Shown here: positions 1,537 to 23,336 of the stretch, one piece after another
How the letters are laid out: the number at the start of each line of letters is the position of its first letter
Position numbering within the stretch: the stretch's first letter is position 1
Assembly: GCF_016432865.1 (NCBI RefSeq)
Contig: NC_067402.1
Span: 200,167,001-200,200,000 of the forward strand
Source: Antechinus flavipes
Lineage: Eukaryota
DNA length: 33,000 bases
Reading direction: 5' to 3'
Program-made: the position numbers and the translations under genes
Notes under the pieces: model-generated
Seen by the model: the letters and a program-made list of their open reading frames with translations, nothing else
What the model was told of the DNA's origin: nothing
Database searches by the model: none

Positions 1537-1933
1537 TGTAAAGGTTAAAAAGCCTCTAGAAGCAAAGAATGCAGTTCAAGGCATGTGGGCGGACCTGAGG
1601 GATGAGAGGTACTGAGGTGCAGGTGAGTCCTACCTGGAGGTGGGACATAGCCCCAGGAAGCGGTGTCTGATCCAGGTATCATATCTCCCTCCTTAGTGAT
1701 CTCAAAGCCTAGCACACCTCTCTCCTTCTTCTCGGGCCAATCCCATTATGCCAGGTTCCTAGAGGACCTCCCCTTTCCCCAGAACCTCAGGGGGATGTGC
1801 TATCTAAGAATAAAGTTCTCTTTTGCTTCACCCCTACCTCCTGGTGGTCTGTCTCTGTGGAATCCAATGAACAGGCATTAAGAGCAGCTCAAAGAGGAGC
1901 TACCAGATTAGAGTAGTCCATAGGGGCATAACA
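1537..1933 (+). repeat. 5' LTR (397 bp)
   Basis: Starts TGTAAAGG, ends CATAACA and aligns to 5472-5919. CCAAT at about 1737 and AATAAA at 1809-1814. Lacks the TATAAA seen in the 3' LTR. Confidence 0.97.
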
Positions 1934-1935
1934 AG

Positions 1936-1953
1936 TGGCGCCCAACGTGGGGC
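1936..1953 (+). other. Primer-binding site, tRNA-Lys(CUU; Lys1,2)
   Basis: TGGCGCCCAACGTGGGGC is the 18/18 complement of the tRNA-Lys(CUU) 3' end, 2 nt after the LTR. Confidence 0.95.
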
Positions 1954-2041
1954 AATTTTGTCTAAGACCTCCCCTTGTAGCAGGCCTACAGGTGGGAAGA
2001 GAGACAGAACTCTGCTCTAGAGTGAGAAGAAAGTTAGGAAA

Positions 2042-3113
2042 ATGGGACAGATTGTTGTGAGGGTCCCAGACCAGGAGGTACCAGGGAAAGAAGCTTATAG
2101 AATAGTAAAGCAAGCAGAATTGGAAATGGATTTTAAAAAGTGGGAGGTAGTAGATAGTCAGATGGCTTCCTATGATAAGGAAACTCTGGGAGCCATCCCA
2201 GAAGGGCATCAAGTGATTGGGAGCACTTTAAGAGGTACAAGCCGCAATACATTAAAAGTAGATAATGAAGTGCAAATGGAGAGTCATAAAACAAATGAGG
2301 GTTGTAAACCAGCCCTCATGGGGACCAGCCATGCTCATAAAATGGAGCTGGCGGAAGTTATCTGTGGGAAAGAACCAGGAAATAAACAGAAAGATGAAGG
2401 AGGTGGATGTGACGTGAAAGAAGGAAGAGGTAGTGAGGAAGAAGCAGGAGGTGGATATGACAGAACAGGAAGGGGCAGGGGTAAGATGAGTAATGAGAAA
2501 GTAAACAGAGAGACATATGACCTTGAGGAAAAGGACAGTGATAAGACGAGGGAGGAGAAAGCAAACAGAGGGAAGGTCGCCTCCTTCTCCAAGGCATGGC
2601 CTTCTCCCTCATCCCCCACCTTCCCTGAGGAGATATGTCTCCCGTCAGCTCCCTCTGCACCCCTCTGTGAAGGCTTTGGAAATTCCCAGACAAGTTTAGG
2701 ACAAATAATACAGAAAGCTGGAAAGTATAAAAGAAATGAGGATCAAATGCAGTATAATGCAGCAGTATAGCAGCTGTGTCCCAATGTACCCAAAGAGCAT
2801 TTAGCAAAATTCAGGCTTCTGGAAAGCAGAGGCCCTCGATGACTAAAATTAAACAGGGCCCAGATGAACCTTTTCCTGATTTTGTGGCCCGCCTACAGGC
2901 AGCTGTTGAGAGGTCAGTGGGCAGAGAAACCTCCAGCCTCCTTGTACAGAAATTGGCAGGGGAGAATGCTAATAGTACTGCCAGAAGGCCATTCTCACTG
3001 TACATGGGGAAGCTGGCCTGAAAGAGATGATAAAGAGATGTGAGGATTCTGGCTCTAGTGCCTTTCAAATGGATGTCCTTGCAGCTGCTATATCTACAGG
3101 GGTTGCAGCAAAA
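2042..3113 (+). pseudogene. gag: gag remnant: MA and spacer with PSAP motifs, CA C-terminal domain; CA N-domain and NC deleted
   Basis: MGQ start in strong Kozak context (aaaATGG). PSAPSAP at 2642-2662, DQMQYN, MHR IKQGPDEPFPDFVARL and LAGENANS(T)CQKAI. Stop at 2768-2770, frameshifts near 2774 and 2980. No CCHC knuckles. Confidence 0.92.
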
Positions 3114-3308
3114 GATCTGCCCTGGCAGTTTGCAGACAAACAGGGGGTATTCCAACCCCTGGGGGTCTCAATTCTCAGCTACAATCAATGGGGCAGGGAT
3201 ATATTGAAGGCTTGTGGGGCCTCAGTTTATATACTCCCTCCACAGGATTTTAAATTGGGGTCATTGGGTTTTGGGGCACCACCTTTCAAATCATACCCAC
3301 ATCATTAA
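3114..3308 (+). pseudogene. pro: pro remnant (protease C-terminal part only), fused in frame to gag
   Basis: FQPLGVSILSYNQWGRDILKACG matches the retroviral protease N-x-WGRD-x-L motif. No DT/SG active site and no dUTPase motifs. Confidence 0.8.
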
Positions 3309-5175
3309 CGTGGAAACCTAACACCCCGGTTTGGGTGCCCCAGTGGCCTTTCTCAGCTTACAAAGCCCAAGCCTTATGTGGAATTATGCAACAACAGTTG
3401 AAGGCCGGACATATAGAACCAATGTCCAGCCCATGGAATAGCCATGTATTTATTATAAAGAAAAAATCTGGGAAACTCAGAATGCTAGTGGACCCCAGAG
3501 CTATTAATGTTACTATCGAACCTATAGGAGCCCTACAATCTGGCATGCCATCTCCTAACCTAGTACCCACCGGCTGGCCAGTTACAGTAATAGACATACA
3601 AGATAGTTTCTTCTCCATCCCTCTAGCCCTAGAGGAGAAGAAAAGATTTGCTTTTACTATTCCCTCTATAAACAATGCAGGGCCTGATCTGCATTACCAA
3701 TGGAAAGTTCTCCCCCGAGGGATGTGTTGTAGCCCCACTTTGTGTACATAGCGCAAGTGCTAGAACCAATTAGGAAGGCGTGGCTTCATGCCATGATACT
3801 GCATTATATGGATGATATACTGTTACCAATGAGCAATGGGAAAGACTTCTCTGCCTTGCTTAGAGACCATAAGCATTCTCACTCCACATGGAGTGATGGT
3901 AGCCCCAGAAAAGAGCCAACATAACTATTCCATCATTTACCTGGGACTCTGCATGGGGACTTCTGCAGTTACTCATCAGATACCTAACTTACCCTTAGAC
4001 AAGGTGAATACTCTGAACCTATTTCAGAAACTGGTTGGACAAATTCAGTGGTTAAGGGCTTGTGCCCTTATTCCTATTTCTTTGATGCAACCTTTATATG
4101 ACATCTTAAAAGGATGTAAGAGATACCCAGAGCCCATTAATATCCTATCAGACAGAGTATATGCTGTCCAAGTGCTCAGAGGCATTGAGGATGCTGTCCT
4201 ACAGCCTCAGAACTCTTCAATTGCTGACCTCCTTGCTGACTTGTAGCTGATTTTACAGACTAGGAAACATCCCATTTACATCCTATATGGATACTCTCAC
4301 CAATGCGGTGTAGGAGGCATATTTGCTGGCAATGAGGTGGTGGATTGTGCTTTACACTGTTCCCTTCTCACGGTCATCACACCCCCTGAGTGTGCCCGTG
4401 ATTTTCTTCACTTACCCGGTAATTCTCTATGTCACCTTTATGGCCTCACCTGTGAACAAGCCCAACGAATAGGAAAGCAGTGTGTTAATTTCTCCTTCCT
4501 CTACCTAGTAAAGGAGTTAATCCCTGGGGTTTATTCCCCAATGATTTGTGGCAAATGGACGTGACACATGTGGGCCATGTGGCCGTCCAGATTTGCATTG
4601 ACACCTTTTCTAGATTCCTTTGGGCCACAGTGCCTTTCCATGAGAACATTCCTCCAGTCATTAAACATTTGTATTGTTGCTTCTCCTTTCATGGAGTTCC
4701 TAATACCATAAAGACCAATAATGGGCCAGCTTATACCTCTAAACAGCTGGCCACCTTCCTCGCCACATTTATCATTAAACATGTTACAGGGATTCCCTAC
4801 AACCCACAGGGTCAGGCCCCAGTGGAACAGGCCCATCATACTCTGAAGGCCACCCTTCTTAAACAGAAAGGGAGAGGAAGTAGACAGAATCCCCGATGGC
4901 CCACACAGATGCATGTGGATAAGACCTTATATACTTACAATTTTATGTGCCTGGATAGGGATACCAGAAAACTAAGCTCCATGAAAACTGCGCTTCAAGT
5001 GCCAGAGAACATTCAAAAGGTCCTTTGTAAGGACGAGGAGGGACATTGGCAAGGTCCATCCTTAGTACTTTGGAGAGGGCTGGGATATTTATGTCTTCCA
5101 GATCCTGACAGGGAAGGCTGCTGGATTCCAGAAAGAAGGACAAGGAAAGTTGCCCCTATTAAAAACAGGATCTGA
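3254..5175 (+). pseudogene. pol: pol remnant: RT, partial RNase H, integrase
   Basis: LTWKPNTPVWVPQWP, SPWNS, QWKVLPRG, YMDD (3805-3816), TLNLFQKLVG, PINILSD, GVNPWGLFPNDLWQMDVTH and GIPYNPQGQ. Frameshifts near 3745, 3835 and 4495, stop at 4244-4246. The second IN catalytic Asp is Asn (KTNNG, AAT 4717-4719). Confidence 0.96.
3266..3272 (+). other. Candidate pro-pol -1 ribosomal frameshift heptamer G GGU UUU
   Basis: X XXY YYZ pattern in the correct phase of the pro frame. The -1 frame is the pol frame, open from 3254. Confidence 0.55.
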
Positions 5176-5241
5176 AATAGAAGAAAAGGAGATGACCCAG
5201 GAGATGCCCAAAACAGCGCCATAGCAGAGAGATGACTACTC

Positions 5242-5631
5242 TTGCCAGACTGGCTTAGTGATTGGATCCAATATACTTCCTTTCCCATCCCCTTCTCTTG
5301 TATCCCATGGGCTCTATGTAGCCATTTTTGTATTGTTGCTTCTTTTGCTTTTACCTACTTTGCTAGGATGCTTTATATGTATTCTTTAAAAAATTCTTTA
5401 GAGGTGCATATGAAGAGTTTCTCATTTTTCAACATGAGAACATTTGATCTTATTAATAAAAGAGGGGGAGATGTAAGGGTTAAAAAGCCTCTAGAAGCAA
5501 GGAATGCAGTTCAAGGCATGTGGGAGGACCTGAGGGATGAGAGGTACCGAGGTGCAGGTGATTCCTACGTGGAGGTGGAGCATAGCCCCAGGAGGCGGTG
5601 TCTGACCCAGGTACCACACTTTGAGAGGTAG
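5242..5631 (+). pseudogene. env: env remnant: TM membrane anchor and cytoplasmic tail reading through the PPT into U3
   Basis: DWIQY, a hydrophobic stretch, then INKRGGDV. This resembles the recalled MMTV TM end (DWTQY...KKKGGNA). SU and the TM ectodomain are absent. Confidence 0.65.
5458..5471 (+). other. Polypurine tract
   Basis: AAAAGAGGGGGAGA immediately before the 3' LTR TG. Confidence 0.93.
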
Positions 5632-5670
5632 TGCTCTCAAAGCCTAGCACTCCATTCTCTTTCTTCTCAG

Positions 5671-5754
5671 CCAATCCCATTATGCCAGGTTCCTAGAGGA
5701 CCTCCCCTTCTCCCAGAACCTCAGGGGGGTATAAATATGCTATCTAAGAATAAA
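5671..5754 (+). promoter_or_regulatory. LTR core promoter and poly(A) signal: CCAAT 5671-5675, TATAAA 5730-5735, AATAAA 5749-5754
   Basis: Motifs are in the expected order. AATAAA only 14 nt after the TATA box implies a U3-located signal and a very short R, as in MMTV/MPMV-type LTRs. Confidence 0.7.
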
Positions 5755-5822
5755 GTTCTCTTTCGCTTCACCCCTACCTACTGGTGGTCTGTCTCTGTGG
5801 GATCCAGGTTGGTGCCTGAAGA

Positions 5823-5831
5823 CAGGTAAGT
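5823..5831 (+). promoter_or_regulatory. Consensus splice donor CAG|GTAAGT in U5 of the 3' LTR
   Basis: 9/9 match to MAG|GTRAGT. It lies in a 42-bp block missing from the 5' LTR. Confidence 0.55.
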
Positions 5832-5919
5832 GTGGCCTAGCTGTGCCATTGACAGATGGGCATTAAGAGTAGCTCAAAGAGGAGCTACCAGGTTAGAGGT
5901 AGTCCATAGGAGCATAACA

Positions 5920-6835
5920 TAGTTGGTTGACTTTCTTTTCATAGTCTTGATTTTCTTCTATTTGTATTTGCTTTCAGTTTTTCCTCAGTCTCTCTCATTT
6001 GACTTTTTTGGGGAGAAGGGTTTGGATTTTTAAGTTTAATTTAGGGTTTTTTCCCTTTTTTAAGGCAATTGGGATTGTTACTTGCCCAGGATCACACAGT
6101 TAATAAGGGTCAAGTATCTGAGGCTGGATTTAAACTCCTCTTTTGATTTTTAAAGTCTTTTTTTAGTTGTATAAATTCTTTTTGGTCAGGTCATCATTCG
6201 TTGTTACTCTTGGGATAGAAGACGCTTTTAAAAAAAAAAAAAACTTCACTATCATCCTTTAAAGATGAACCTTGGTCTTCCCCATTCCCATAGTAACTTT
6301 GTATGATTGGGTTTTTTTTCTTTGTCTGATCAATTAAAAAAAATTGTTAGTATAATTACCTCTAATCCTAGATGGAGGGGATATTGCCTCTGGCTTCTGG
6401 TCTTCCTTCAGTTCTCACCTGGAACCCCAAACCAAAAACACTATCCTCCTCTAAGTGCCTACAAATAGAAGCTTCTTTGTCCCACTGCTTCTGCACATAA
6501 ACTGGTTCCTTCTCACCTAGGACAACACAGCTGAACCTGGCGCTCCTTATCAACAGAGGCTACCTCAATTTGCTCCTACTCAAACACCCAACGCCCCATA
6601 CTATCTAGGAAAAGTTCTTGTGGCTGAAATCTAGGCTTCCTTCCAACCCAGCCAACTCCAGAATTCACTGCTTCTTGTTTCAGGAGAACTAGCCTGGAAG
6701 TGTTTACACTTTACAGGAGTTAAAACTCAATCCTTACATCTTTCTTCAGATCTTCTATTGACCCCAAATACCACTGTTCTGACTCAACTCCTATTTATTT
6801 TTAGCTGCTCTGTATTTGCCCTTCCCAGAAAGGAA
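5920..6835 (-). mobile_element. HAL1-like copy A: 5' part (ORF1 N-half and 5' UTR)
   Basis: The rc of 5921-5943 is tatgaaaagaaagtcaaccaact, as at 21139-21160. The rc of 6570-6790 aligns with the 5' UTR at 30240-30470. Confidence 0.75.
6050..6140 (-). mobile_element. WSINE1-type CORE-SINE fragment
   Basis: T-tail followed by aggcaattggga...acttgcccaggatcacacag...ctgaggctggatttaaactc. Confidence 0.75.
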
Positions 6836-6848
6836 ATGGAAGTTGAAA

Positions 6849-8250
6849 AATAGTCAATGACTATAGCAATCTAGTATTTGACAAACCTAAAGATTCCCAG
6901 TTTTGGGGATAAGAATTCACTATTTTACAAAAAATGCTAAGAAAATTGGAAATGAATATGGCAGAAACTAGGCATTGACCCTAGTATATACCAAGATAAA
7001 GTTGAAATGGGTTCATGATTTGGACATAAAGAATGATATTATAAACAAATTAGAAGAACATAGGATAGTTTACCTTTCAGATATGTGGAGGAAGAAAGAG
7101 TTTGCGACCAAAGAAGAACTAGAGATCATTATTGATTACAAAATGGATAATTTTGATTATATTAATTTAAAAAGTATTTATACAAACAAAACTAATGCAG
7201 ACAAGATTAGAAGGGAAGCAACTGGGAAAATATTTTTATATTCAAAGGTTCTGATAAAGACCTCATTTCTAAAATATATAGAGAACTGAGTCAAATTTGT
7301 AATAGTTCAAACCATTCTCCAATTTATAAATAGTCAAAGGATATGAACAGACAATTTTCAGATGAAGAAATTGAAACTACTTGTAGTTATATGAAAAGGT
7401 GCTCCAAATCACTATTGATCAGAGAAATGCAAAGTAAGACAACTCTGAGATACCACTATACACCTGTCAGATTGGCTAAGATGATAGAAAAAGATAATGA
7501 CAAATGTTGGTTGGAGGGGATGTGGGAAAACTGAGACACTGATACATTGTTGGTGGAATTGTGAACGGATCCAACCATTCTGGAGAGCAGTTTGGAACTA
7601 TGCCCAAAAGGCTATCAAACTGTGCACATCCTTTGAAGCAGCAGTGTTACTACTAGGCTTATATCCCAAAGAGATCTTAAAGAAAGGAAAGGATCTATAT
7701 GTGCACGAATGTTTGTGTCAGCCTTCTTTGTAGTGGCCAGAAACTGGAAACTAAGTAGATGCCCATCAATTAGAGAATGACTGAATAAATTGTGGTATAT
7801 GAATGTTATGGAATATTATTGTTCTATAAGAAACGACCAACAGGATGATTTCAGAGAGGTCTGGAGAGACTTACATGAACTGATGCTGAGTGAAATGAGC
7901 AGAACTAGAACATCATTGTGCATGGCAACAAGACTATATGATGATCAGTTCTGATGGATGTGGCTCTTTCAACAATGAGATGATTCAAACCAGTTCCAAT
8001 TGTTCAGTGATGAAGAAAGCCATTGACACCCAGAGACAGAGAGCTGTAGGAACTGAGTGTGGACTACAACATAGCATTCTCATTCTGTTGTTTGCTCGCA
8101 TTTTGTTTTCTTTCTCTCTTCTTGATCTGATTTTTTTTGTGCAGCAAGATAATTATATAAATATGTATACATATATTGTATTTAACATATTTAACATGTA
8201 TTGGACTACCTGCTAGTTAGGGGAGGAGGTGGGAGGAAGGAGGGGAAAAT
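6849..8250 (+). mobile_element. 5'-truncated LINE-1 (ORF2 C-terminus and 3' UTR), degenerate
   Basis: ORF2 peptides MNRQFSDEEI, CSKSLLIREMQ.KTTLRYHYTPVRLA and CGKTETLIHCWW. Marsupial-type 3' UTR. Confidence 0.93.
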
Positions 8251-8574
8251 TTGGAAAAGGTTCGTTCTAATTTAGAAACTGGGGAAAAGAATGAAAGAAG
8301 TTAATATTTCAAATTCTATTAAAATGGAAACATTCCCAATGACACCTGGAAGTTACAAGAACTAAGAATGTCACTTACCTGGAATATACACATCAACCAT
8401 TGGTTAGAAGTAATTTAGATCTGACATTTTCTCCACTAGTTTGTATTAGATTAGTAGATAAGGCAATCCATGATTAACTTATTCTTATGCTTTTCCCATC
8501 TTCTAATTATTCTGGGCATCTTCAACCACCCTTTAATTCCTTTTGCGATCATTGCTCTGCTTTGGGAATCCTTT

Positions 8575-10892: not shown

Positions 10893-13138
10893 CACAGACA
10901 TGATACTGATACCTAAATCAGGTAGGATGAAAACAGAGAAAGAAAATTATAGACCAATTTCCTTAATGAATATTGATGTAAAAATGTTAAATAACATATT
11001 AGCAAAGAGATTACAGAAAGTCATCCCCAGGACCAATGACCAAGTAGAATTTATAACAGGAATGCAGGGCTGATTCAATATTAGGAAAACTATTAACATA
11101 ATTGACTATATCCATAACCAAACTAACAAAAAACCTTATGATTACCTCAATAGATGCAGAAAAAGCATTTGATAAAATACAACAAAAAAAATTTCCATCC
11201 ATTCCTATTAAAAACACTAGAGAGTATAGGAATAAATGGACTTTTCCTAAAAATGATCAGTAGTATCTGGTTAAAATCATCAGCAAGCATCATATGCAAG
11301 GAGGACAGACTAGAATCATTCCCAGTAAGATCAGGGGTGAAACAAGATTGCCCACTATCACCATTACTACTCAATATTGTATTAGAAATGTTAGATTTGT
11401 CAATAAGAGAAGAAAAAGATATTAAAAGAATTAGAGTAGGTAATGAGGAAGCCAAATTATTACTCTTTGTAGATGATATGATGGTATACTTAGAGAACTT
11501 TAGAGAATCAACTAAAAAACCACTAGAAACAATCCACAACTTTATCAGGATACAAAATAAATCCACATAAATCATCAGCATTTTTATATGTTATCTACAA
11601 AGTCCAGCAGCAAGCGATACAAAGAGAAATTCCATTTAAAATAACTGTCAATAACATAAAATATTTGGGAGACTACCTGCCAAGGCAAAGTCAGGAACTA
11701 TATGAACACAACTACATAACACTTTCCACACAAAATCAAATTTAAACAATTGGAAAAATATCAAGTGCTCGGGTAGACTAAGAATATATAATAAAAATGA
11801 CAATACTACCTAAATTAATCTACTTATTTAGTCAATCAAGAAAGTATTTTACTGATTTAGAAAAAAAATAATAACAAAGTTCATCTGTAAGAACAAAATT
11901 TCAAGAATTTCAAGGGAATTAATGAAAAAATTGCAAATAAAGGTGGCCTAGCTGTACCAGATCTAAAACTATATTATAAAGTAATGGTCATCAAAACCAT
12001 TTGGTACTGGCTAAGAATTTTACATTCAAGAGTTCTGATAAAGACCTCATTTCTAAAATATAAAGAGAACTGACTCAAACTTATAAGAATTTGATAAATG
12101 GTCAGAGGATATGAACAGACAATTTTCAGATGAAGAAATTGATATCACTTCTAATCATATGAAAAGGGGTTCTAAATCACTGTTGATCAGAGAAATGCAA
12201 ATTAAGACAACTCTGAGGTACCACTACATACCTTTCAGATTGGCTAAGATGAGAGGAAAAGATAATGATAAATGCTGGAGGGTATGTGGGAAAACTGGGA
12301 CACTAATACATTGTTGGTGGAATTGTGAATGGATCTAACCATTCTGGAGAGCAATTTGGAGCTATGTTCAAAAAGTTATCAAACTGCATACCCTTTGATC
12401 CAGCAGTGTTACTACTGGTCTTATATCCCAAAGAGATATTAAAGAAGGGAAAGGGACCTGTATGTGCAAAAATGTTTGTGGCAGCCCTTTGTAGTGGCAA
12501 GGAACTAGATACAGAATGGATGCCCATCATTGGAGAATGGCTGAATAAATTGTGGTATATGAATGTTATAGAATATTATTGTTCTGTAAGAAATGATCAG
12601 CAGGATAATTTCAGAGAAGCCAGGAGAGACCTACATGAACTGATGCTAAGTGAAATGAGCAGAATCAGAAGATCATTGCAAACAACAACAAGAAGATTAT
12701 ACAATGATCAATTCTGATGGATTTGGCTCTTTCCAACAATGAGATGACTGATGCCAGCTCTAATTGTTCAGTGATGAAGAGAGCCATCTACACCCAGAGA
12801 GAGGCCTGTGGGAACTGAATGTGGTTCACAACATAGCATTTTTACTTTTTTTTATTATTGTTTGCTTGCATTTTATTTTCTTTCTCATTTGTTTCCTATT
12901 TGATCTGATTTTTCTTGTGCAGCAAGATAATTGTATAAATTGGTATGCATATATTGGATTTAACATATATTTCTACCATGTTTGACATTTATTGAATTAC
13001 TTGCTATCTAAGGAAGGGGGTGGAAAAAGGGAGGGAATTGGAATACAAGATTTTGCAAGGGTTAATGTTGAAAAATTGGTTTAATGTTGAAAAATTATTG
13101 ACGCATATGTTTTGAAAACAAAAAAACTTTAATTAAAA
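10893..13138 (+). mobile_element. 5'-truncated LINE-1 (RT domain to 3' end) with an internal deletion near 12017 and a 14-bp TSD
   Basis: RT peptide CPLSPLLLNIVLE...LFVDDM (ORF 11154-11570) and an A-rich tail. TSD AAAATTAAGTCCTT at 10879-10892 and 13139-13152. Inserted into a MIR core. Confidence 0.95.
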
Positions 13139-16800: not shown

Positions 16801-17152
16801 ATACATGGCACTTGGGAAACTATGTATGGACTTTACAAAGCAAACAGTCGAGATCAACTTGTTTCTTTTCTTAAGTTGGAGGAAAATTAGTATAGCATCG
16901 TAATAAGTCTTCTGCTACAAGAGATTGTGATCTCTCATGTCTCCACCGGGTGGCAGGGCACTCAAACTACAGGTCCAGGTGGTGGAGCTGTTTAAAATCC
17001 ATGCTGAGCAAGGAAATTAAATGGTATAAAGTACTGGCTCTCTGCTAAAACCTTCCCATTTACAGGACACAGGCAATCAACATGTCTCAGTCACACTTAA
17101 AAAACATGCTCATATCTATTTCGCTTACAACTTATTTTAAAGAAAAAATCAG

Positions 17153-17745
17153 ATCCCCAAAGGGCTATAAAACTATACATATCCTTTGGCCCAGCAGTGC
17201 CATTACTGGGTCTGTATCCCAACGGAATCATCAGGGAGGGAAAAGGACTCTCATTGCAAGAATGTTTGTAGCAGCTTTTTTTGTGGTAGCAAAGAATTGG
17301 AAAATGAATGAATGTCCATCAACTGGGGAGCGGTTGAGCAAGTTGTGGTATATGAAAATAATGGAATATTGTTGTTCTTTGTATAAAAAATGATGAACAA
17401 GCTGATTTTAGAAAGTCCTGCAAAGATTTACATGAACTGAGATTGAGCAAAACAAGCAGAACCAGGAATACATCATACACAGTAACAGCAAGATGGTGCG
17501 ATGATCAACTATGAAAGACTTGGTTCTTCTCAGCAGTTCAGTGATCCAAGGTAATCCCAATAGACTTTGGATAGAAAATGCCATCTGCATCCAGAAAGAA
17601 CTATGGAAACTGAATGTAAATCAATACATGCTATTTTCACTTTTTTTTTTTCCTCTTGTGGTTTTTCCTTTTTGTTCTGATCTTTTTTCTCCCAACATGA
17701 TTCATAAAAAAATGTGTATTTAAAAAGTTAATATACATGTATAAT
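17153..17745 (+). mobile_element. LINE-1 3' end (same subfamily as 21623-22160)
   Basis: ORF2 tail MFVAAFFVVAKNWK...CPSTGE.LSKLWYM. The 3' UTR shares tgatcaactatgaaagacttgg with 21905-21927. Confidence 0.9.
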
Positions 17746-19831: not shown

Positions 19832-20352
19832 TTTACCTTTTTAAAAATTAAATCTTTTTATTTTTTAAAACATATGCATGAATAATTTTCAACATTCACC
19901 CTTGCAAAATCTTGGGATCCAACTTTTTTCCCTCTCTTCCCTCCATCCCTTCCCCGAGATGGCAAGCAATTCAATATATGTCAAATATATGTCAAAAAAC
20001 AGCAATTCTTCTATACATATTTCCACAAATATCATGCTGCACAAGAAAAATCAGATCAAAAAGGAAAAAAGTGAGAAAGAAAACAAAATGAAAGCAAACA
20101 ACAACAAAAAGAATGAAAATGCTATGTTGTGATCCACACTCAGTTCCTATAGTTCTCTCTGTGGGTGTAGCTGATTCTCTTTATAACTGAACATTTGGAA
20201 CTGGCCTGAATCCTCTTGTTGCTGAAGAGAGCCTTGTCCATCAGAATTGATCATCCTATAGTCTTGTTGTTGCCATGTGTAATGATCTCCTAGCTCTGCT
20301 CATTTCATTTAGCATCAGTTCATGTAAGTCTCTCCAGGTATCTCTGAAATCC
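19832..20352 (-). mobile_element. LINE-1 3' end inserted in the copy B 5' UTR
   Basis: T-rich start and an antisense L1 3' UTR. TSD core AAGCAGTTGAT at 19814-19824 and 20353-20363. Confidence 0.88.
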
Positions 20353-22397
20353 AAGCAGTTGATCACTTAAGACAACCAAAGAAAATCCTAGGAAAGACCT
20401 GACCTTCAGGGGCAGAGGTTCTGCCATAATGAAGAGGAAATGTTTAGTCTAGGTGCAGAATCAACAAACAACAAGCTCTGGGGGCAGCTTCAGGCTTAGA
20501 AATGTCCATCTCTCAGACAGTGTGGGGTTCTGATGGTGGAGGAGAAAATTGAAGGACCTTCCCCTGTGGAGGGATGCTAAGCATAGCTGTGTTAACTAGA
20601 CACATCCATCCTGGGACAGACTGCAACTGCCTGGGAGAAAGAGGTACCGCCATCTGGGCAGTGCAGTAGCAGAGGGGCAAGGACTCTGGTGGCCGTGGGC
20701 ACCTGCAGGTGAGCAGAGTCCCTGGTTTCATTTGCAGGGAAGGGAGGACAACTGTAGTCTGCAGCCACCAGAGGGATTGCAGGAAATAAAATCCTAAGTA
20801 GGAACAGAACAGAAGGACCTGAGTCTTGGGGCATTATTCTCCTTTCTTCATAGAAGTCTAGAACCGAATCTCACTAATAGTTGCTAAAAATAAAATAAGA
20901 AAACCAAAAATAATTAGCAAAAAACCGTAGATAGCTACTATGGTGATAGAGAACACCAAGGTTTATATTCAAAGGAAGATACTAAAGCTAAAAAAGCCAT
21001 TGCTTTCTTTTCCCGTAAAAAATATCAAATGGTCCTGATTTTAAAAAGAATTCTGGGAAAAACTAAAAAAGAGTTTTAAAAACCAAATAAGAAAAATTGA
21101 GGAAAAATGAGGGGAAAATGGAGCAATACAAGAAAATTATGAAAAGAAAGTCAACCAACTTAAAATAGAGAAACAAAAACTTAAGGAAGAAAATCATTCC
21201 TTGAAAACTAGAATTGGGTAAAAGAAAGCTAATATATTCTAAGACACAAAGAAATAAAACAAAAACAAAAGAATGAAAAAATAGAAAAGAATGTGAAACA
21301 TCAGAAAAACAATGGATCTGGAGGACAGATCAAGGAGAAATAATATAAAAATAGTCAGGTTGCCAGAAAATTGTGATTTAAAAAAGACTCTTGTTACAAT
21401 ATTACAAGAAATTATAAAGGAAAAAGGAGTTCTAAAACAAAAAGGCAAAACAGAAATAGAAAAAAATCCAACAATCATCACTTGAAGGACTTTCCAGGAA
21501 GAAAATTTTCAAGAATATCATAGCCAAGTTTCAGAGCTCCCAAGTTAAGAAGAAAATATTGGAAGCAACAAGAAAAAAACTATTTAAATATTATGGAGCT
21601 AAAATTAAGATTACACAAGACCATGCAAAAGAAATTTTAAAGGAGGGAAAAGGACACATATGTGAAAAAATATTTGTAGCAGCTTTTTTTTGTGATAATA
21701 AAGAATTAGAAAATGAGTAGATGCTCATCAATTGGGAAATGGCTGATAAGTTGTGGTATATGAAGATAACAGAATATTATTGTTCTATAAAAATGATGAA
21801 CAAGCTAATTTTAGAAAGGTCTGGAAAGATTTACAAATACTGATGCCAAGCAAAGCAAGCAAAACTAGGAATACATCATATTTAGTAACAGCAAGAATGT
21901 ATTATGATCAACTATGAAAGACTTGGTTTTTCTCAGTGGTTCAGTGTTCAAAGCAATCCCAATAGTCTTTGGACAGAAAATGCCATCTACATCCTGAAAA
22001 AGAAATGAATGTAAATCAACACATGTTATGTTCACTTCTTTTTTCTGTTGTTTTTTTTTTTTAATCTCTTCCATGGTTTTTCCCTTTTGTTCTGATTTTT
22101 TTTCTCTCACCGTGATTCATAAAGTAATGTGTATTAAAAATAAATTTATTAGAAAAAAATTATTAAAAAAGACAAGTAATCTCTATTTTGATTGAATGCT
22201 CAATTAAAAACCCAAAATATATTAAAATGAAAAAAAAAAAAAAAAGAAGAGTATCCTTTGTCCATCTTTGACCAGATTGAAAGGAGAGTATTTAAATAAG
22301 GAATGATTGTTTTCAGGAAGATAGTTTCTCTAACTTACTATTGTTCTTTTTGGTAATTTAGCTTAATAGGTAAATTAAAGCTATATACCTTTGTTTC

Positions 22398-23326
22398 TTT
22401 TTTTAAAAATAAATATTTTATTTTATTTATTAAAGCTTTTTATTTACAAAACATATGCATGGGTAATTTTTCAACACTGACCCTTACAAAACCTTCTGTT
22501 CCAAATTATCCCTTCCTTCCCTCCACCCCTTTCCCTTGATGGCAGGTAGTCCAATACATGTTAAATGTGTTAAAATATAAGTTAAATCCAATATATGTAT
22601 ACATATTTATACTGTTATCTTGCTTCACAAGAAAAACTGGATCAGAAGGAAAAAAGAAAAATTGGGAAGGAAAACAAAATGTAAGCAAACAACAACAGAG
22701 AGAGTGAGAATGCTATGTTGTGATCCACCCTCAGTTCCCACAGGCTTCTCTCTGGGTGTAGATGGCTCTCTTCATCACTGAACAATTGGAGTTGTTTGAA
22801 TCATCTAATTGTTGAAGAGAGTGATGTCCATCAGAATTGATCATCATATAGTCTTGTTGCTGTCATGTACAATGATCTCCTGGCCCTGCTCATTTCACTT
22901 GGCATCAGTTCATATAGGTCTCTCCAGGCCTCTCTGAAATCATCGTTGATCATTTCTTACAGAACAATAATATTCCATAACATTCATATACCACAATTTA
23001 TTCAGCCATTCTCCAATTAATGGGCATCCACTCAGTTTCCAGTTTCTGGCCACTACAAAAAAGGCTGCCACAAACATTTTTGCACATACAGATCCCTTTC
23101 CCCCTTTCAAGATCTCTTTGGGATATAAGCCCAGTAGTAACACTTCTGGGTCATAGATTTGATAGCTTTTTGAGCATAGTTCCAAATTGCTCTCCAGAGC
23201 TATTGGATCAGTTCACAATTCTACCAACAATGTATCAGTGTCCCAGTTTTCCCACAACCCCTCCAACATTCGTCATTATCTTTTCCTGTCATCTTAGCCA
23301 ATCTGAGAGGTGTGTAGTGGTATATA
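22398..23326 (-). mobile_element. LINE-1 3' portion (ORF2 tail and 3' UTR), antisense, nested
   Basis: Antisense ORF2 peptide EILKGGKGSVCAKMFVAAFFVVARNWK. TGTTTC on both sides (22392-22397, 23327-23332) with a TTTC|AA target. Confidence 0.9.
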
Positions 23327-23336
23327 TGTTTCAAAA

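Follow-up and report, generated by a model that had tools for sequence, protein, structure and literature searches.

A decayed provirus of 4,383 nt, env-less and betaretrovirus-like, lies at positions 1537-5919 of the window (the whole 33,000-nt stretch of DNA analysed here), and all five scored coding deletions of at least 40 nt that it carries preserve the reading frame. The proviral anatomy, the frame at each deletion join, the multi-copy nature of the family and the lack of most of the present breaks across that family at large are established directly. To account for the frame-keeping deletions we propose that a non-autonomous lineage was filtered for an open gag-pro frame, in the manner of mouse IAP 1-delta-1 elements, an explanation that we consider evenly poised between right and wrong.

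All features of the provirus read on the + strand. It is bounded by a 6-bp target-site duplication, of which the left copy (1531-1536) matches the right copy (5920-5925) at five of six letters. The LTRs have TG..CA ends and differ at 31 of 390 aligned columns (7.9%); relative to the 3′ LTR (5472-5919, placed by LTR comparison), the 5′ LTR (1537-1933) lacks ~45 nt and a further 6 nt holding a TATA-like box. A primer-binding site, which we take to be of the tRNA-Lys type, occupies 1936-1953. The gag remnant (2042-3104) retains matrix, an acidic/proline region, the end of the capsid N-domain, the capsid C-domain and the spacer, and is broken by 1-nt frameshifts at ~2769 and ~2976. It is followed by the C-half of protease with a slippery-like pro/pol site (3105-3253) and by the pol remnant (3254-5235), which encodes RT, thumb, the C-part of RNase H and integrase and is interrupted by frameshifts at ~3746 (7 nt), ~3862 (2 nt) and ~4487 (10 nt) and by stops at 4244 and 5173. 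Nearly all of env is gone; a likely remnant (5192-5457) has a hydrophobic, membrane-anchor-like tail. A polypurine tract stands at 5458-5471. The protease and pol frames are separate (pro in frame 3, pol in frame 2, that is, -1 to pro), with the slippery-like site at 3245-3251 and a pol-frame stop at 3251-3253, and the gag/pro shift site has been deleted. Pfam matches cover the capsid C-domain, RT, RT thumb, integrase core and integrase C-domain, with a weak match to the protease C-half. The best structure match of the ORF at 3836-4246 is 7sr6 (‘Polymerase’, E 1e-11), presumably HERV-K, and HERV-K-named Gag chains are among the top structure matches of a wombat Gag relative (P0005). Judged by its LTRs, primer site, polypurine tract, frames and closest solved proteins, the provirus appears to be a betaretrovirus-like (class II) endogenous retrovirus.

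Its interior is matched by 2,811-3,632 contigs per run in four genome-scale runs from four organisms, and summed contig depth over the interior is in the thousands, against ~20-80 for single records; because contig numbers and summed depth are that high, we regard the family as multi-copy, depth not being equal to copy number. No further copy or solo LTR of the family was found in the 33,000-nt window, viral contigs held neither a relative of the provirus nor a match to the pattern of its gag-protease join, and none of 52 loci in metagenome contigs was close in DNA (best 74-77% over 60-89 nt). Protein searches returned one protein for the ORF at 3836-4246, no match for the gag ORF against longer proteins, and four matches in the search with representatives, two of them low-complexity non-relatives. 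The closest named relatives are wombat Gag and Pol (UniRef A0A4X2M4F1, A0A4X2KGN5 and A0A4X2JQZ3), which are gene predictions, not proviral DNA, and show 59-78% identity over stretches of capsid, RT thumb, RNase H and integrase; from these relatives a marsupial host seems likely.

An earlier reading of this DNA, made from the sequence only, had described three large deletions that keep the frame, each inside an ORF. The ORFs are where it placed them (2042-2770, 3027-3308 and 3836-4246) and are fragments cut by later frameshifts, and the three deletions are indeed in frame; the list was incomplete, missing deletions in matrix and in the integrase linker. The capsid deletion (join 1, 2719-2720) and the pol deletion (join 3, 4114-4115) could be sized against the wombat proteins, which are undeleted at both. 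On the two flanks of join 1 the window aligns in frame 2 to P0005, of which residues 148-262 are missing: 115 codons (345 nt) have gone, comprising most of the capsid N-domain, and Pfam Gag_p24 at P0005 172-296 lies mostly inside the loss. One residue is common to both sides, and the alignment is gap-free for ~29 codons upstream and for 16 downstream, up to the frameshift at 2769. At join 3, residue 54 of wombat Pol (P0001) meets residue 258, in frame 2 on either side; 203 codons (609 nt), encoding the thumb end, the connection and the first third of RNase H, are absent, and the gap-free flanks extend over 54 and 124 codons. Neither join has a masking indel beside it. Undeleted copies place join 3 at a codon boundary (third/first positions), with loose ends at 4114 and 4115 in eight contigs each from runs X3 and X6. 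These loose ends, 4114 behind the join and 4115 ahead of it, meet edge to edge, so that no exact repeat is seen, and the two sides encode similar residues (three of seven identical). Among the 24 loose ends listed (1,983 further) none falls at joins 1 and 2, to which we attach no evidential weight. Join 1 is bridged by X3 record 10 (41 differences in 314, with 23 gap letters; the exact position of the join in that record was not seen) and join 3 by X8 record 27 (41 differences in 334). An assembly artefact was rejected as the full account, given these bridging records in other runs and the lack of any N in the element.

Join 2 (3104-3108) fuses the gag spacer in frame to the C-half of protease. 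In frame 3, Gag homology extends as far as 3104 and protease homology takes over from ~3105, with pol coming next at -1; the zinc knuckles, upstream pro and the protease N-half are missing, a loss that comparison with MEBrv 5 by eye puts at ~0.85 kb. The part upstream of protease, where a dUTPase would be looked for, falls within this loss. Protease is matched weakly (E 0.56 to M-PMV protease, beginning at its residue 64; E 0.02 to Pfam RVP, short of the cut-off). The pro side of the join is bounded by a contig with another deletion, whose match resumes at 3108; just ahead of 3108 that contig carries letters nearly repeating those on the gag side of join 2. The fusion of gag to the pro frame inside ORF 3027-3308 was thus correctly recognised from the letters, while its position, ~3104-3107, is a few codons to the left of the one proposed. 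A protein search with the protease part gave no close protease relative, and join 2 is therefore in frame by its flanks and not sized modulo 3. None of the 29 records listed (13,812 further) bridges it.

Three smaller deletions also keep the frame. The one in matrix (2138-2147) removes a net 72 nt, seen as a gap of 22-24 codons against P0006 and P0007 and, in three runs, as a joint from 2138 to 2147 that has 80 letters between its ends. A 12-nt deletion at 2211-2212 corresponds to a 4-codon gap against P0005 and to a loose end at 2211 in 10 contigs. The integrase linker (4964-4968) has lost ~15 codons (~45 nt), as judged from a 15-residue gap against P0001 and P0002 and from loose ends at 4965 and 4967 in 6-9 contigs. 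A short spacing of integrase motifs was also considered as a deletion and rejected, the wombat protein being spaced alike. Compared with relatives and family contigs, the coding DNA carries 13 indels, of which eight are in frame (72, 12, 345, 3, join 2, 609, 3 and ~45 nt, one of the 3-nt gaps being defined by the wombat protein alone) and five are not (1, 1, 7, 2 and 10 nt); the tally leaves aside the env gap and the acidic part of gag, which is variable, neither of which could be scored. In-frame events make up 5/5 at 40 nt or more, 6/8 at 6 nt or more, 3/8 below 40 nt and 8/13 overall. With the 40-nt threshold chosen after the data had been seen, 5/5 has a probability of 0.004 at an in-frame chance of 1/3, 0.010 at 0.4 and 0.031 at 0.5; for 8/13 it is 0.035 at 1/3 and 0.10 at 0.4. 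Frame played no part in the choice of the matrix and integrase-linker gaps, and the frame-keeping pattern, as read from these alignments, seems somewhat stronger than first reported.

How strong it is depends on the null. The figure of about 1 in 27 given earlier for three in-frame deletions by chance is too small. We took identical k-mers at least 40 nt apart in the retained coding DNA and asked what share falls in the same codon phase: 0.36 for k=3, 0.37 for 4, 0.41 for 6, 0.54 for 8 and 0.63 for 9 (41 pairs only). Leaving out the low-complexity stretch gave 0.36-0.57 overall and 0.37-0.51 for 4-8 nt. Because repeats in coding DNA are in phase above 1/3, deletions guided by short repeats are biased toward the frame; with a null of 0.37-0.54 for repeats of 4-8 nt, three of three joins in frame has a probability of 0.06-0.13 at p = 0.4-0.5. 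Hints of such guidance are the similar residues at join 3, the residue common to the sides of join 1 and the near-repeat at join 2.

The main competitor of a translation filter is accordingly a neutral one, in which deletions arose between short in-phase repeats, by reverse-transcriptase jumps or host repair, and chance and the choice made in scanning did the rest, with no selection on frame. We consider this a serious possibility, though on balance we lean against it. The rise of the in-phase share from 3 to 9 nt, the similarity or near-repeat at all three joins, the in-frame joints at single loci elsewhere in the family (below) and the high neutral rate of medium deletions in the LTR pair all speak for it; 5/5 still has P 0.03 at p = 0.5, the abutting loose ends of join 3 show no exact repeat, and the small deletions of the same copy are in frame in only 3/8.

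Deletion joints in other copies give a sample free of the scan's picking, and they repeat the frame pattern. Joints were scored by arithmetic on their places, and only those with a known number of letters between were used. The first list held 20 joints (174 further), from which those marked ‘between: not known’ were excluded; the second held 12 (51 further), of which two were excluded (an end outside coding DNA; a backward jump) and two merged. Six of nine events are in frame (P 0.042 at 1/3, 0.10 at 0.4), or six of ten with one replaced segment. Two joints, 2183-3108 and 2914/2921-3363, are in-frame fusions of gag to protease (from matrix) and to RT (from capsid). Each scored joint comes from a single contig per run, with a depth close to that of one locus, and those recurring across organisms are probably orthologous loci. 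The 6/9 result fits mutational bias as well as selection, because a deletion present at one locus may never have met a filter. A large-deletion scan of the 52 metagenome loci yielded one event, in three near-identical loci and in frame, too few for a control.

The ages of the deletions bear on the same choice. The records that bridge joins 1 and 3 differ from the window by 12-13%, compared with 7.9% for the LTR pair (one-sided Fisher p 0.018 and 0.035), and 24 other long single-piece records differ by 11-18% (median 14%), three two-piece records having been excluded. Divergence above that of the LTR pair and within the range of the other records suggests that the bridging records, X3 record 10 and X8 record 27, are probably paralogues and that the deletions at joins 1 and 3 predate the last round of copying. 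Among the 29 records listed (13,812 further), joins 1 and 3 have one bridging record each, none carries two joins together, and the matrix and integrase gaps have no bridging record. Join 3 and the matrix, 12-nt and integrase gaps all have undeleted counterparts. Scaling from the losses of ~45 and 6 nt in the 5′ LTR, ~8 (1-28) neutral deletions of at least 6 nt are expected in the interior. The matrix (72-nt) and integrase (45-nt) gaps may thus date from after insertion, since the neutral LTR rate suffices for them; for the three gaps above 300 nt the post-insertion neutral route is less likely.

Under the translation filter, an env-less family would have copied itself inside cells, and template jumps of reverse transcriptase would have made the deletions. 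The deleted RNAs would have borrowed Gag and Pol from intact copies, as helper-dependent elements, and those still translating a Gag-protease fusion that ends near the normal pro stop would have been favoured, the advantage arising through RNA stability (escape from nonsense-mediated decay) or through a cis action of the fusion of the kind reported for IAP 1-delta-1. After insertion the provirus would have decayed neutrally. Such a filter would best explain joins 1 and 2, and luck or microhomology may have had a share in join 3 and in the two medium deletions. It is less apt for an open pol frame, which is harder to explain by decay since few ribosomes enter pol. In its favour, join 2 puts gag in the pro frame, as in the gag fusion of IAP 1-delta-1. 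Selection on translatability itself, as the sequence-only reading proposed, has a precedent in the cis effect of that mouse element; that such selection, rather than in-phase microhomology and chance, made the pattern is no more than plausible.

In the mouse, a 1.9-kb deletion in IAP 1-delta-1 creates a gag-pol fusion; Gag and Pol are needed in trans, and the fusion is reported to aid retrotransposition in cis (PMC6466679, PMC7411935). The window element resembles IAP 1-delta-1 in being env-less and class II and in having lost an internal segment so that gag runs on in frame into a gene further downstream, the protease match being weak on its own. It differs in that IAP 1-delta-1 is a young, active family with one deletion, whereas the window holds an old copy with five frame-keeping deletions, two of them in pol, from which the capsid N-domain and zinc knuckles are gone. 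For an avian alpharetrovirus, one study describes a mechanism by which an early gag stop costs retroviral RNA its stability (PMC4764554); the mechanism was shown there and would apply here by analogy only. We found no published account of serial frame-keeping deletions in a marsupial element, in a search mostly outside the subscription literature. A translation filter is of a kind already known from the mouse element, and the five-deletion marsupial case would plausibly be a further instance.

Should the filter be real, translation would act in cis not just in one mouse element but in a distant marsupial lineage as well, and its role would be measurable from genomes alone by the frame of shared versus private deletions. 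If it is not, the case serves as a warning that in-phase microhomology lifts the null well above 1/3, so that such proviral patterns are weaker evidence than they appear. A broader form of the idea, that a marsupial lineage shrank serially under selection for an open frame across gag-pro-pol, with no working protein left and translatability as the selected trait, seems unlikely to us. Pooling the large gaps of the provirus with the joints of other copies gives 11/15 deletions in frame; if gag-pro-pol translatability was selected, a family-wide excess of in-frame deletions is expected.

The present stops and small frameshifts had been read as later decay, and most or many of the other copies lack them. 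Almost all contig depth disagrees with the window at the stops near 3252 and 4244, and many contigs are without the frameshifts at 2769, 2976, 3745-3748, 3862 and 4489. Changes private to the window fall at codon positions 1/2/3 in the ratio 16/10/10, counted at the 36 coding places among 40 listed (794 more), and third positions are not in excess (p 0.81). On its own branch the provirus shows no trace of protein-level selection, which fits neutral decay. This codon-position spread argues against a Gag kept by the host but does not separate the two leading readings, the translation filter and the neutral one. Host-kept Gag restriction factors exist (Fv1, enJSRV), and a 242-codon gag frame is still open from an ATG, so a chimeric or truncated Gag retained for a trans job, such as blocking related viruses, deserved consideration. 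With five frameshifts, several stops, private changes spread as above, a 5′ LTR without a TATA-like box and, in protein searches, no relative of the 242-aa product beyond ordinary Gag pieces, we find it highly improbable, and the earlier suggestion of a trans-acting chimeric Gag finds no support. The one copy in the window is dead, with no function evident. The notion that the gaps are introns, in a provirus copied from spliced RNA, we hold to be just as implausible: splicing is often frame-keeping and spliced retroviral RNAs can be copied back, but the wombat codons bordering the join 3 gap cannot give GT..AG ends, and we know of no betaretroviral pattern with five introns inside gag and pol.

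Marsupial betaretrovirus-like clades have been described as MEBrv 1-5, of which MEBrv 3 (7.3 kb, with a trace of a gamma-type env) lost env and multiplied like IAP (PMC11334065). The window element shares the loss of env with MEBrv 3, has the same primer-binding site, by eye, as the MEBrv 1 representative, and, again by eye, resembles MEBrv 5 over capsid and the end of pol; in a comparison by eye only, its LTR is unlike those of MEBrv 1, 3 and 5, with no match to the last 585 nt of the MEBrv 3 representative. Four short motifs of the window are absent from the supplement text of that article, a weak result with lines split in blocks of ten, and the main text has no discussion of deleted subfamilies (‘deletion’ occurs twice, both times in a general sense).

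About 220 nt separate the end of pol from the polypurine tract, and this env gap is bridged by four of the 29 records listed, in three runs. The env deletion might also be frame-keeping; a search for a reference gave none, with no Pfam match for 5236-5628 and no Atlas match for 5225-5386. An ATG overlapping the end of pol is in frame with the membrane-anchor-like stretch (5192-5389), with one stop between, and a Trp-rich stretch at 5236 lies in another frame than that stretch. The acidic, purine-rich part of gag (2300-2600) exceeds its counterpart in the wombat protein by ~39 codons, and its length differs from copy to copy. In the 5′ LTR, a block of ~17 nt near 1680-1700 has been replaced, not point-mutated, and the absent ~45 nt, which like the absent TATA-like box belong to the stretch 1794-1875 (compared with 5728-5860), hold, in the 3′ LTR, a consensus-like splice donor (~5819-5832). 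Among the metagenome loci, L047 (2347-2397), L048 and L049, 98-99% alike, belong to an unrelated beta-like element whose integrase, compared with P0002, has lost ~360 nt in frame; a ~119-nt tandem duplication is further present in L048 and L049. Elsewhere in the window, a run of N occupies ~749-886, and mutually related repeat fragments in both orientations lie at 6900-8260, 12000-12970, 17150-17730 and 20000-23330, which by resemblance we take to be likely LINE-1 3′ ends. The provirus itself seems to sit inside a reversed LINE-like fragment.
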